From assembly GCA_037143575.1 (NCBI GenBank), contig JBAWYM010000001.1, positions 8,327 to 72,326 on the forward strand: DNA of 64,000 nucleotides, read 5' to 3'. The notes below the pieces were generated by a model. It ran no database searches and was not told the DNA's origin. It was given only the letters and a program-made list of their open reading frames with translations. The stretch's first letter is position 1. Each line of letters begins with the position of its first letter. Below, in pieces: positions 5,658-9,074 of the stretch. Made by a program: the position numbers and the translations under genes. This stretch comes from Candidatus Peregrinibacteria bacterium. GTDB lineage: Bacteria; Patescibacteriota; Gracilibacteria; Peribacterales; Peribacteraceae.

Positions 5658-5685
5658 TTGACTTCCATCCATCCAAGTATATATT
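5658..5685 (+). promoter_or_regulatory. Sigma70-like promoter TTGACT-N16-TATATT
   Basis: Hexamers and spacing read directly from the sequence. Faces the Met-run mini-ORFs. Confidence 0.5.
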
Positions 5686-5718
5686 CCGACCGTGATCCAC
5701 CTCTCCTCCCTCGCCGCA

Positions 5719-5763
5719 ATGCAAATGATGATGCGCTCAATGCGAGGGCAGGTTGCTGCGTAG
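5719..5763 (+). CDS. Candidate leader peptide MQMMMRSMRGQVAA
   Basis: 14 codons, 5 of them Met. Embedded in alternating complementary 7-mers (CCCTCGC 5708, GCGAGGG 5742, CCCTCGC 5788, GCGAGG 5801). Confidence 0.35.
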   Translation: MQMMMRSMRGQVAA

Positions 5764-5787
5764 AAATAGATCAGCACCTGAAGTACC

Positions 5788-5813
5788 CCCTCGCACCGAA
5801 GCGAGGTTTTTTT
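5788..5813 (+). terminator. Intrinsic terminator (CCTCGC-accgaa-GCGAGG + T7)
   Basis: 6-bp GC-rich stem followed by seven T. No plus-strand gene lies upstream other than the mini-ORF. Confidence 0.6.
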
Positions 5814-5853
5814 GAAACGTACCCGCGGTACATCTCTACTCCCACTTCTCTCC

Positions 5854-5946
5854 ATGATCATCTCTTCCGCCTCCACCGTCCCCACCTCCATCATAATGAT
5901 GATGGCGATGATGATGACCCCTCTGCGAGGCGGGTGTGAGACGTAA
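5854..5946 (+). CDS. Candidate leader peptide MIISSASTVPTSIIMMMAMMMTPLRGGCET
   Basis: 30 codons with an MMMAMMM run. Followed by the hairpin and T-run at 5963-6001. Confidence 0.3.
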   Translation: MIISSASTVPTSIIMMMAMMMTPLRGGCET

Positions 5947-5962
5947 GGAAAAATATCTCACT

Positions 5963-6001
5963 TCAACCCCAACCCTCGCAGAAATGCGGGGGTTGATTTT
6001 T
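5963..6001 (+). terminator. Terminator-like hairpin (TCAACCCC...GGGGTTGA + T5)
   Basis: 8-bp outer stem with an inner CGCA-GAAA-TGCG hairpin, then ATTTTTA. Confidence 0.45.
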
Positions 6002-6027
6002 ATATCGTTCATTTCCGCCCTTCCCCA

Positions 6028-6115
6028 ATGCGCCTCTACATCCTCTATCTACGTACCGACTGCATGCTCATGCGACCTGTCTTTATCCCAAACTCTATTT
6101 CTTCATTTCTCCCCA
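6028..6115 (+). promoter_or_regulatory. Conserved 5' leader element, copy A
   Basis: The first 47 nt match copy B (7154-) at 41 of 47 positions by hand alignment. Ends in the C/T-rich tract before ATG 6116. Confidence 0.55.
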
Positions 6116-7135
6116 ATGACCATGACAACCTTTGAATCAACACCGGCAGAAGATACGGAATTTAAGCTCCGTAAACCCACGCGCACACTGTTCTACTCCG
6201 ATACCGTCGGCGGACAAACACTGCAACCGAACGGTGAACTCGAGCATCCATTCAACAGGCCATGCCTCGAGGAAATTCTCACGCAAGTCGTTCGCTCTCC
6301 AACCTTCGGAGGCAATCCGGAACGAGCCCATACCTTCGGAAGAGAAGGCTCCTTCGCACATCTCGTTGATGAGGCGCGCAGACTGCATAGAGAGCCCGCC
6401 ATCGTCGGACCGCAAGACAAAACGTTTTTCGCCCTCAATGGAGCACCAAGACTGACCACCAAAGCGGGATCCGGAAACGGCAATACCTTTTACTTCGGCA
6501 GACTGCACCCCAATTTGGAAGTCGTCGGTCCGGCGCATTGCTTTGCACGTGTACGACATCTTATTGAGGATGGACGAGTGCAATTATCCGAAGTGGATGG
6601 TGAAGGAGTGATCTGGCCCGAAAAATGTCAGGATCGTTCTTCTCATTTGCTGAGGTTGTCACAAGGAAGAGATCGGCTCAGGGGTCAGGGCAGAGCCGTT
6701 GGAGCTGAAGTGGTTCCAAAGATCCCTGAATGGACGGTGGGAGCGGTGGACAATTTCGGAGGATTCAAACTCTCCGTCGCAGATACTTGGAAATTCGTGG
6801 AGAGCGTTCGCAAAGAGGAAAGCCGTGGAAAAGATGGCCTGAAAACGATTGGCCTGGAGATAGGTGGCGTTCGTCAGGAAGTGGCTTCGGTACTCGATGC
6901 TGCTGCCCTTACAGATCTCCATCAACGCATCAAAGGTGATCCGACACGACTCGTGCTCTACCTGGACCACACGCGACCTCAGAAAGATGCAGAAGGAAAT
7001 CTCTTCGGTGCTCCAACGCTTTATTGGCCGTGGGCAGATCGATCCACTCCGAAGGAGAAATTGCTGACGCATTCTCCCTACGGAAAATTCGGCGCCAACC
7101 CGCACATCGAAGGTCTCCCCGTTAATATTTCCTGA
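6116..7135 (+). CDS. Hypothetical protein (339 aa)
   Basis: Long uninterrupted ORF. G-rich first codon positions and an ordinary soluble-protein composition. The antisense ORFs are compositional shadows (see rejected list). Confidence 0.6.
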   Translation: MTMTTFESTPAEDTEFKLRKPTRTLFYSDTVGGQTLQPNGELEHPFNRPCLEEILTQVVRSPTFGGNPERAHTFGREGSFAHLVDEARRLHREPAIVGPQDKTFFALNGAPRLTTKAGSGNGNTFYFGRLHPNLEVVGPAHCFARVRHLIEDGRVQLSEVDGEGVIWPEKCQDRSSHLLRLSQGRDRLRGQGRAVGAEVVPKIPEWTVGAVDNFGGFKLSVADTWKFVESVRKEESRGKDGLKTIGLEIGGVRQEVASVLDAAALTDLHQRIKGDPTRLVLYLDHTRPQKDAEGNLFGAPTLYWPWADRSTPKEKLLTHSPYGKFGANPHIEGLPVNIS

Positions 7136-7153: not shown

Positions 7154-7248
7154 ATGCGCTTCTACATCCTCTACCTCCGTACCACCTGCATGCTTATGCG
7201 GGATAGCTAAGCGCCAAAGCATTGTATTTCTTCTTCCCCCCAATTCTC
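7154..7248 (+). promoter_or_regulatory. Conserved 5' leader element, copy B
   Basis: ATGCGCTTCTACATCCTCTACCTCCGTACCACCTGCATGCTTATGCG..., then a C/T-rich tract before ATG 7249. Confidence 0.55.
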
Positions 7249-7785
7249 ATGACTAATGAATCTCCAGAAAATGACCGCCCACATACAAGTGATGACACAG
7301 TGCCGTCAAAGCCGCCAAGCGCTGATAGACATCAGCAAAACCATTCTATCCGACCCCACAATTATCAATCGGTATTCAAAAGAATGTATGAGGAAATTGA
7401 TGAAGAATTGAGACGGGCTTTCACAGAGTTACTGTCTAGCATGAGTTTGCCTTTTGATCTCAAAGGTGGTCTTCATCAAGCTAGTGACGAAAGTACTGTG
7501 TTTTTGCGGTGCGTACGATCAGAAACCGTCGAAGGAAAGGTGTTTCATTATTACGCAGGTTTTATACATGATTCATTTCCCGCTAGCGCAGCTGTTATAG
7601 GAATTCCATGGCAGATCATAGATGCTTCAACGAAGAAAGTGATTGGTGAAGGTACCACAGAAGTATGCGGCCACTTTGGATTCCGGATCAAAGATTCAGC
7701 TGTTTCGGAACCAAAGAAATTGGAATTGCGTTTTGGGCAACAACAATCAGCCATCGAGCAATCTGCGTCTCCTCCATCTGTATGA
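7249..7785 (+). CDS. Hypothetical protein (178 aa)
   Basis: ORF with ATG at 7249 directly after leader copy B. No family recognised. Visibly more A/T-rich than its neighbours. Confidence 0.5.
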   Translation: MTNESPENDRPHTSDDTVPSKPPSADRHQQNHSIRPHNYQSVFKRMYEEIDEELRRAFTELLSSMSLPFDLKGGLHQASDESTVFLRCVRSETVEGKVFHYYAGFIHDSFPASAAVIGIPWQIIDASTKKVIGEGTTEVCGHFGFRIKDSAVSEPKKLELRFGQQQSAIEQSASPPSV

Positions 7786-7828
7786 GATGTTCAAATTTCT
7801 CATTTCTCATTCATTCCCCCCCACTCCC

Positions 7829-8281
7829 ATGTCCGAGAAACCTTCAGAACATCAACGGCCAAAAAGATTGCTTACCTTTCCTGAATTCGTTCGTAAAGTA
7901 GAAATCTGTACCGATAGATTACTGGCAAGAGCTGATCAGAATTTAGATGACCATGAGGATGATGCACCAATGGATCAAGCACGAATTGATGAAATCCGCC
8001 GCAGAGTTGCTAAAAGACTCGCCTCCACTCCCAATCACGAAAACCTAGTTGACCACGATCAGCAAATATCTACATTTTCACTCGATGATATCGCTGAGAA
8101 TGATGGTGACACTCGTGCTGATTATGAAGAAATCGTAAGATTGCTTGAGAGCATGCCCGATGAACGTCTCTCTGATGAGGCAGCTGTTGTTCTCTATGGT
8201 AATTTCCGGGATAGGGTGAAGAGACAGTTGGGTATTGAATTACCCGAGAAATTACCTACAGCTCTTCCATCAGAGGAATAG
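7829..8281 (+). CDS. Hypothetical acidic protein (150 aa)
   Basis: ORF with ATG at 7829 preceded by TTTCTCATTCATTCCCCCCCACTCCC. No family recognised. Confidence 0.5.
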   Translation: MSEKPSEHQRPKRLLTFPEFVRKVEICTDRLLARADQNLDDHEDDAPMDQARIDEIRRRVAKRLASTPNHENLVDHDQQISTFSLDDIAENDGDTRADYEEIVRLLESMPDERLSDEAAVVLYGNFRDRVKRQLGIELPEKLPTALPSEE

Positions 8282-8414: not shown

Positions 8415-9074
8415 ATGGCCGATCCGACACCCCCCACGCCTCCCCGTCCCGGTGATCCCGTCCCCGCAGGAGGGCTCGATCCCACGCAGGTTTTCGGTAC
8501 GCCACCGCCACCGCCTCCACAGGCCGGTGCCGCTGGTGCTGCCGGAGCCAAGCCTGTAGCCGGTGCTGCTGGTGCGCAGGATGATGGTGCGATTCCACAG
8601 GACATGGGTCCGCCACCGCCTCCGGTGGGGACGATCGCGACCAAGGAAATGGGATTCGATGATGAGGACATCCGTATTCTCGGCGAAATCGGCAATTACC
8701 GCTTCGGGAGCATTACGGTTTCACTGACCAATGACAATATCATCGTCCCCGCTCATACCGAGACGAAGATGGACGAGCAGCTTTTCTTGACCTTGCTCCG
8801 CGGTTCCATCTCCCTCACACGCGACGAGAAGTGGCGCATCATCCAGGCCATTCCCAAGCTCAGTCAGTTCCAGATCGATGAGCTCCAGAAGATCCTGGAG
8901 GAGGAGAAGAAGAAGTTCTCCGAGCTCTCGCCCAAGCACCTCCTTCAGCTTCAGAAGTTGGAACAGAAGCACGCCGCCGACTGGACCGATCTGCAGGCTG
9001 TCACCGTGCAGACGGCCGCCAAGAGCGACGAAGCAGCGAAGGCAGAGGAGATCAGGAAACAACTGGGGCTATAA
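8415..9074 (+). CDS. Hypothetical protein with Pro/Ala/Gly-rich N-terminus and coiled-coil-like C-terminus
   Basis: 219-aa ORF. The low-complexity PPPPPP/AGAAGA N-terminal part is followed by a charged helical region. Confidence 0.55.
   Translation: MADPTPPTPPRPGDPVPAGGLDPTQVFGTPPPPPPQAGAAGAAGAKPVAGAAGAQDDGAIPQDMGPPPPPVGTIATKEMGFDDEDIRILGEIGNYRFGSITVSLTNDNIIVPAHTETKMDEQLFLTLLRGSISLTRDEKWRIIQAIPKLSQFQIDELQKILEEEKKKFSELSPKHLLQLQKLEQKHAADWTDLQAVTVQTAAKSDEAAKAEEIRKQLGL

Follow-up and report, generated by a model that had tools for sequence, protein, structure and literature searches.

Two tandem Met-codon leader modules with the anatomy of trp-type attenuators precede a SAM-hydrolase-like gene in a Candidatus Peregrinibacteria bacterium

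The stretch of DNA analysed here, called the window, comprises 64,000 nt of contig JBAWYM010000001.1 (assembly GCA_037143575.1) of a Candidatus Peregrinibacteria bacterium, whose genome (1.64 Mb in 85 contigs) is small and of the type found in the candidate phyla radiation (CPR). Between pyrH and a divergently oriented gene of 339 amino acids (6116-7135, + strand), the window carries one promoter and two short open reading frames (ORFs) with runs of Met codons, each of them followed by a terminator. An earlier note on this DNA had read the two ORFs as leader peptides of methionine-codon attenuators. Our analysis supports this reading, on the grounds that the element is conserved, that the pairing of its second and third segments covaries and that the genes behind it, for which we use the term cargo, are repeatedly linked to methionine or S-adenosylmethionine (SAM).

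The promoter, the ORFs and the complementary heptamers and nonamers listed in that note were borne out by checks of sequence, ORFs, terminators and repeats. All features described in the following lie on the + strand. The promoter (5658-5685) is of the sigma-70 type and matches the consensus at 10 of 12 positions, with the -35 box TTGACT at 5658-5663, a 16-nt spacer and the -10 box TATATT at 5680-5685. In the promoter scan no other promoter-like site was found on this strand between pyrH and the 6116 gene, neither before module 2 nor between its terminator and the cargo gene.

Module 1 contains leader ORF 1, (M/V)IHLSSLAAMQMMMRSMRGQVAA (5692-5763), which encodes a peptide of type A with the pattern M(M)MQMMMRS[MLVA]RGQVAA. 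This ORF was first called as MQMMMRSMRGQVAA, from the ATG at 5719 to 5763. Its presence and its stop stand, but the start is most likely the GTG at 5692, 7 nt past the -10 box, which would make the mRNA leaderless. The Met codons occupy 5719-5721 and 5725-5733, i.e. four of five codons. With the start at GTG 5692, segment 1 (CCCUCGC, 5708-5714), the putative anti-antiterminator arm, falls inside the ORF; it is paired as such in the minimum free energy (MFE) fold of the free leader. Segment 2 (UGCGAGGG, 5741-5748) lies within the ORF at the M-R-G codons and can pair with either segment 1 or segment 3. Its heptamer GCGAGGG (5742-5748) faces CCCTCGC at 5788-5794, and over its full length all eight bases are complementary to 5788-5795, which makes the two an inverted repeat. 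The stop codon UAG (5761-5763) lies in the middle hairpin (5749-5780), which is the uppermost part of the antiterminator stem and is retained in relatives with other sequences, for example as CCGGAU/AUCCGG. Terminator 1 (5788-5813) consists of segment 3 (CCCUCGCA, 5788-5795), segment 4 (GCGAGG, 5801-5806) and seven U (5807-5813); the terminator scan delimited its hairpin as 5789-5806 with a T7 tail.

Module 2 is a homologous copy of module 1 about 184 nt away, as judged from repeats and from a joint alignment, and both are about 100 nt long. Leader ORF 2 (MIISSASTVPTSIIMMMAMMMTPLRGGCET, 5854-5946) ends with ...IIMMMAMMMTPLRGGCET and encodes a peptide of type B, MMM[ASE]MMM[TS]PLRGGC.... Its Met run (5896-5916) has six Met in seven codons, with one Ala codon inside. 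In two relatives the second module likewise starts ahead of the run, by 10-11 codons. Segment 1 (U-CCGCCUC-CA, 5866-5875) is within ORF 2 and pairs with GAGGCGG (5927-5933) in MFE folds; segment 2 (UCUGCGAGGCGG, 5922-5933) covers the L-R-G-G codons. Of the latter, TCTGCGAGG (5922-5930) is complementary at nine of nine positions to CCTCGCAGA (5974-5982), again an inverted repeat. The earlier note had put CCTCGCAGA into the loop of a hairpin, which proved wrong, as it is the 5' arm of terminator 2 (5970-6001), a stem of 11 bp (5970-5980/5985-5995) with a GAAA loop and an A-U5 tail at -20.4 kcal/mol. The middle hairpin GUGAGA...UCUCAC (5936-5961) appears in MFE folds and holds the stop codon UAA (5944-5946).

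A BLASTN search of 151 family genomes with positions 5690-6005 of the window clearly matched one module or both in many genera, and after re-orientation of the loci all of the matches encode a Met-run mini-ORF and then a terminator. They fall into types A (n=8) and B (n=16), both counts including the window's own module. A covariance model, R1, was built from the joint alignment A3 of these 24 modules and searched against 200 genomes from 84 genera of the family, where it matched in 125 genomes and 65 genera. Beyond the family, R1 matched in the class in 11 additional families, and in the remainder of the phylum (CPR/Patescibacteria) sporadically, in a few genomes. The window's modules score 109.5 and 80.4 bits, which is the highest or near the highest. 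Mini-ORFs and complementary segments are kept in about 100 related genomes; the earlier note had named their absence from related genomes as a refutation, and this did not come true. In its own genome neither BLASTN nor R1 found any copy of the module besides the two.

The earlier note had also considered that (ATG)n is just another simple repeat. The genome is indeed rich in such repeats: there are 73 copies of (ATG)3 in the 1.64 Mb, compared to about 10 expected. Nevertheless, this explanation does not hold for the leader, since the three other places with at least five ATG in seven codons each lie within a long ORF on the opposite strand, and (ATG)2-3 NNN (ATG)3 occurs in this genome at the present site only.

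Some variants of the element were seen along the way. Tandem modules are present at 12 of the 93 loci at which the cargo was surveyed. At six loci a further type of Met leader, ..MM[x]M[x]MR[x]PRE.R., occurs with a CCCGCGGG/CCGCGGG switch and a terminator of its own, always as the second module after one of type B. Four low-scoring matches to the architecture encode Lys/Thr-rich peptides, e.g. MQHCSSMKKTTKMTSLPGKDGC and MITKKTSPPRADF, in place of the Met runs; they could represent related attenuators that respond to Thr or Lys.

That the leader ORFs are read as codons is indicated by several properties of 111 modules, the set on which the counts of codon phasing, promoters and duplex energies rest. 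Where the Met run is interrupted, the interruption is a single codon in nearly all modules and two codons in a few, and the interrupting triplet is free to vary (S, Q, A, H, E, G, F, P and others). In type A the run is followed by a Ser codon, for which TCC, TCG, TCT and TCA are all in use. The stop codon follows the run at a median distance of 27 nt (10th-75th percentile 27-30 nt). Between run and stop the Met frame is open in every module; in the two remaining frames, 28 and 35 of the 111 modules are interrupted by stops.

The upstream side of the modules is in phase as well. An exact TTGAC[AT] is found in 80 of the 111 modules, mostly 52-79 nt upstream of the run, and in 77 of these 80 there is a start codon (ATG, GTG or TTG) 34-40 nt past the start of the -35 box that is in frame with the run and open to it. 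Start-like triplets within this interval are distributed over frames 0, 1 and 2 as 84, 0 and 2. The in-frame start sits 6-9 nt past the -10 box, where transcription should begin. Because start codon and predicted transcription start coincide, we infer that the leader mRNAs are leaderless. At this position CGTGATC or CGTGA is frequent (5686-5698 in the window, and in many relatives), its GTG being in the frame of the leader ORF; it may be a conserved initiation context for leaderless mRNAs that start with GUG. In the window's own genome, Shine-Dalgarno (SD)-like motifs are depleted upstream of 838 long ORFs (8%, compared to a background of 12%), and their starts are preceded by 20 nt rich in C/U and poor in G. 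This lineage thus appears to initiate translation independently of SD motifs, and since the depletion is genome-wide, a missing SD motif at the leader ORFs is no objection to their translation.

The second line of evidence comes from the alternative pairings. In the 24-module alignment the terminator helix is paired in 82.8% of the cells, and none of 500 shuffles reached the observed covariation. For the antiterminator, i.e. the pairing of segments 2 and 3, 88.5% of the cells are paired, and its closing U:A pair covaries (UA 17, UG 3, AU 2, CG 1). It is this 2:3 pairing that RNAalifold returns as the consensus structure. Across the 111 modules the duplex between the segment 2 region and segment 3 has a mean energy of -14.7 kcal/mol, compared to -8.1 for shuffled ORF regions. 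When the 43 distinct designs of segment 3 were combined with matched and mismatched partners, the values were -14.86 and -11.65, respectively, and none of 10,000 permutations reached the observed value. Outside the family both partners are rewritten together, as UGCGGAG/CUCCGCA, CCGAGGGU/ACCCUCGG and GCGAAGG/CCUUCGC; further compensatory redesigns there are GCGGCGCGAGCU/AGCUCCCGCCGC and CGGGAGGUGU/ACACCUCCCG. Segment 2 starts at a median of 7 nt past the run, and the stop codon follows about 10 nt past its end, within the conserved middle hairpin.

Folding of module 1 gave the states expected of a ribosome-controlled switch. The free leader adopts the 1:2 pairing, the middle hairpin and the terminator (-37.1 kcal/mol). 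When segment 1 and the run are masked, the MFE structure is the antiterminator (-25.8 kcal/mol), and when a ribosome is placed at the stop codon, the RNA on its 3' side folds into the terminator.

The third line of evidence is the cargo. The window's 339-amino-acid protein had no match in Pfam or NCBIfam, and in a word-indexed homologue search of 5.8 billion proteins it matched itself alone. It is nevertheless not an orphan, a view that was overturned by BLASTP against the genes behind homologous leaders: its family is the commonest cargo, at 33 of the 93 loci. The consensus of this family contains the motifs SDTxGG, NxAPR, EQFRSS and YVDRFGN, and the conserved residues of the 339-amino-acid protein include D29, N108, R112 and D212. 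Its profile matches the structure 2zbu of DUF62 (SAM hydroxide adenosyltransferase) in the PDB, and 9 of 27 members match PF20257 (SAM_HAT_C), below the curated cut-off (best E-value 5.8e-5). Because Pfam and NCBIfam gave no match, the fold of the window protein was modelled with AlphaFold (AF2) on a custom alignment (predicted local distance difference test score 86.6, predicted template modelling score 0.88) and compared with the PDB by Foldseek. The ten best hits are all DUF62 proteins, SalL or the SAM hydrolase MJ1651 (E-values 1e-8 to 1e-5, probability 1.0), and the next hit after them has an E-value of 0.015. The cargo thus has a divergent DUF62 fold according to BLASTP to the relatives' cargos, profile, AF2 model and Foldseek, and its predicted reaction is the conversion of SAM to adenosine and L-methionine.

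Other cargos point in the same direction. The homocysteine S-methyltransferase PF02574 is the cargo at 11 of the 93 loci (E-values 1e-15 to 1e-21 in the three members scanned). Outside the class a similar leader precedes a gene resembling those of cargo cluster 1, a methyltransferase and, at one locus, MetA (PF04204, 2e-60). The Met or SAM link that the earlier note had suggested looking for in the 339-amino-acid protein is thus found both in its DUF62 SAM-hydrolase fold and in the homocysteine S-methyltransferase or MetA carried by relatives. The window's own genome has metK and a single copy of the SAM-hydrolase-like gene, and no homocysteine methyltransferase was found in it.

At nine loci the next long ORF is hisS. 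As the regulated gene it was rejected at the three of these loci that were inspected: an ORF of 71-77 amino acids lies between leader and hisS, and in two of them a hairpin precedes hisS. Small proteins of about 70-100 amino acids starting with M[VG]N[IL]LP[IV].. are an alternative cargo of Met leaders at five loci, and the hairpin seen ahead of hisS in the two inspected cases lies behind a gene of this kind.

Taking together the anatomy, the conservation, the covariation and the association with cargo genes, we consider it likely, with a probability of roughly 0.8, that the element consists of a promoter and two tandem ribosome-mediated attenuators of the trp type, which sense Met codons and control the SAM-hydrolase-like gene. 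From these observations we infer the following course of events, from transcription start and leader translation to stalling, enzyme activity and the response to methionine. Transcription would begin about 7 nt past the -10 box at GUG 5692, which would also be the start codon of leader ORF 1; the mRNA would be leaderless because the two coincide. In each module segment 1 would lie in the ORF just before the Met run, the G-rich segment 2 ((U)GCGAGG(G)) in the ORF about 7 nt after it, and segments 3 and 4 would form the terminator. In an untranslated leader 1:2 and 3:4 would form, and transcription would stop. With ample charged elongator Met-tRNA the ribosome would reach the stop codon and occlude segment 2, so that 3:4 forms and termination again results. 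Hence both methionine sufficiency and a lack of translation would lead to termination at 5813 and 6001. When Met-tRNA is scarce, the ribosome would stall in the Met run, covering segment 1 and leaving segment 2 free to pair with segment 3 once this is made. The resulting long antiterminator stem, capped by the middle hairpin, would exclude the terminator, and the polymerase would read on. Since both serial modules need read-through, the response would be sharper and the basal level lower. Read-through would yield an enzyme that regenerates methionine at the cost of SAM.

The earlier note had found the ribosome-position logic less clean than in the trp case. This is largely resolved by the probable start of the leader ORF at the transcription start, which places segment 1 inside the ORF and directly ahead of the run, like that of trpL; for module 2 the logic holds only kinetically. 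With segment 1 of module 2 masked, the terminator stays the thermodynamic optimum (fold at -31.9 kcal/mol), and the antiterminator (-27.1 kcal/mol) wins only before segment 4 exists. Read-through of module 2 would thus depend on kinetics, because its 11-bp terminator remains the optimum. This is one of several points that weigh against the attenuator interpretation. Another is the 1:2 pairing, which across relatives amounts to -13.8 kcal/mol compared to -12.2 for shuffled sequences and is better in 65% of the modules, a modest signal; a strong one was looked for and not found. The share of Met runs among R1 matches (at least four Met in eight codons in 93, and at least five in 83, of the 99 best matches) is in part a circular count, as sequences with Met runs had served to train R1; the codon phasing and the in-frame starts described above are free of this circularity. 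As to the cargo, the N-terminal Pfam domain SAM_HAT_N (PF01887) was detected in none of the family members searched, and the similarity to DUF62 structures amounts to TM-scores (template modelling scores) of 0.47 and 0.58 at about 10-11% identity, the activity being predicted from this fold. Moreover, at least two of the 93 loci carry class-I methyltransferases, which consume SAM, and about 40% of the cargo genes have no recognisable function.

The strength of the second terminator also bears on the first of three other explanations, namely that the element is an attenuator-like relic or a constitutive brake, in which a leaky pair of terminators sets a low basal level and the Met codons no longer sense anything. 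Besides the unusually strong terminator of module 2, which stays the thermodynamic optimum, this explanation could call on the loss of the usual upstream neighbour recG, with divergent pyrH in its place, and on the further conserved upstream ORF that follows the modules. Yet it seems improbable for an element whose modules rank at or near the top of the family model by their bit scores. Nothing is missing from the four segments, the two Met runs, the stop codons or the promoter, and the cargo gene, likewise intact, belongs to the family that is most frequent behind such leaders.

Quite improbable, too, is a sensor made of RNA only, either a riboswitch for SAM or methionine or a T-box-like RNA whose AUG repeats would bind uncharged tRNA-Met by its CAU anticodon, the ORF being incidental. 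It is true that Met and SAM genes elsewhere in bacteria are usually under the control of S-box, SAM-II or T-box RNAs, that AUG is complementary to the anticodon of tRNA-Met and that alternative terminator and antiterminator hairpins are common to both mechanisms. However, no Rfam family matched the window's element, and no conserved structured aptamer is present, with about 25 nt ahead of the run and about 7 nt from the run to segment 2. The codon phasing described above, i.e. single-codon interruptions, a fixed distance to the stop and in-frame starts (84:0:2), would not be expected of such a sensor, nor would a Met frame that is open to the stop in every module when the other frames are not.

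Very unlikely, finally, are functional Met-rich micropeptides, e.g. metal-binding or exported ones, with hairpins that end small independent genes unlinked to the downstream gene: the ORFs are conserved and probably translated, and a good terminator stands behind each, but there is no peptide conservation outside the Met run and the R-G codons, the latter being segment 2, the complementarity between ORF and 5' arm of the terminator covaries, which a plain terminator would not need, the modules are arranged in tandem and no promoter was found ahead of either the second one or the cargo gene, and the cargos are repeatedly Met or SAM enzymes.

Between terminator 2 and the cargo gene lies a third upstream ORF, MRLYILYLRTDCMLMR... 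(6028-6135), of which the part from 6028 to 6075 is conserved. Its peptide, MR[LF]YILYLRT[DT]CMLMR, has a second copy in the window at 7154-7210, ahead of the next gene (ATG 7249), and is found with synonymous codon changes in at least five other genomes. In relatives this ORF precedes both SAM-hydrolase-like and homocysteine-methyltransferase cargos; in the window it lacks a terminator of its own. The sequence GCATGCTCATGCG is common to this ORF and the 'type D' Met leaders found in relatives. Possibly, though we regard this as doubtful from the sequence at hand, it acts on the translation of the cargo as a new nascent-peptide sensor or as a sensor of Met/Cys codons, so that the locus would be a three-layer methionine sensor. 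If this were true, then together with the phylum-wide Met attenuators it would point to a ribosome-read "methionine regulon" in CPR bacteria with the cleavage of SAM to methionine as the emergency output.

The surroundings of the element differ between the window and its relatives. Most relatives have the order recG, Met leader, variable cargo and a proline-rich protein, MADP..PPPRPGDPVPxGGLDPxQVF. In the window, where this protein is encoded at 8415-9074, divergent pyrH stands in place of recG and extra genes (7249-8281) lie between cargo and proline-rich protein.

Methionine specificity would fill a gap in the repertoire of attenuators. The family is large and cleanly structured, its instances numbering more than 100 throughout one class of CPR bacteria, with some outside it, and it offers a rare view of gene regulation in uncultured organisms. 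If the attenuator interpretation is right, transcription and translation would be coupled on leaderless, SD-less mRNAs in CPR bacteria, and a divergent, previously invisible branch of DUF62 would gain a role in the recovery of methionine from SAM whenever translation lacks it. A mechanistic point is that AUG is also the initiation codon; the design sets the run downstream of a separate, 5'-terminal start. With its modular design and a length of about 100 nt, the element is testable in reporter systems, and it could help to annotate Met-related genes of unassigned function behind such leaders.

The earlier note knew of no described attenuator with a run of Met codons, and our searches agree. 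In the Rfam scan of the window's element, run at permissive E-values, no family matched: the best hit was Leu_leader with 17.9 bits, compared to a gathering score of 50, and covered the terminator only, and no SAM riboswitch or T-box was matched even at E-values up to 10. In Rfam and the searchable literature no Met-codon attenuator was found other than a prediction of one line from Streptomyces (PMC8079986). This is 'metL' (MSTTSDRTPATEATTTPGARCMCRRMCAF) of Streptomyces lividans TK24, a predicted leader peptide encoded ahead of metNIQ, which was proposed to be a Met-dependent attenuator and for which, according to the paper, a typical Rho-independent terminator is missing (PMC8079986). The two cases have in common a short ORF with Met codons, leaderless in metL and probably so here, ahead of a methionine-related operon. 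They differ in that the Met codons of metL are scattered, that the paper contains no comparative or covariation evidence and that metL has no sequence relationship to the present family.

The cargo shares the two-domain fold with the DUF62 proteins (MJ1651, PH0463, Thermotoga maritima 2zbu/2zbv, the chlorinase SalL and the fluorinase), and its C-terminal motif 'vDrFGN' matches PF20257 and 2zbu. Its N-terminal 'SDTxGG' seems to resemble the ribose-binding motif TDFG/SDLG of DUF62, and in the family consensus NxAPR and YVDRFGN, too, resemble DUF62 at the level of motifs. In contrast to these proteins, it is about 60-80 residues longer, and its family was seen in these CPR genomes only.

Known regulators of methionine genes are MetJ, SAM riboswitches and T-boxes. 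With S-box (SAM-I), SAM-II and Met T-box RNAs the present element would share the regulatory purpose and the choice between terminator and antiterminator ahead of Met or SAM genes. In those RNAs, large conserved aptamers sense SAM or uncharged tRNA, whereas here the proposed sensor is a translated, codon-phased ORF. Leader-peptide attenuation is textbook knowledge for Trp, His, Leu, Thr, Phe and Ile/Val. Like the trpL, hisL, leuL, thrL, pheL and ilvL/ivbL leaders, the modules have a short ORF rich in codons of one amino acid, four segments that can pair alternatively as 2:3 and 3:4, with a putative 1:2 pairing besides, a segment 1 that lies close to the presumed sensing codons, a stop codon at which the terminating ribosome could mask segment 2, and an intrinsic terminator before a gene predicted to supply this amino acid. 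Unlike them, they are similar to no Rfam leader, have Met (AUG) as the presumed sensing codon and are probably transcribed as leaderless RNA without an SD sequence in a CPR bacterium with a reduced genome. Furthermore, instead of a biosynthetic operon they precede a gene for a predicted SAM-cleaving enzyme, or in relatives one for homocysteine methyltransferase or MetA, and in the window two modules stand in series in front of the gene.

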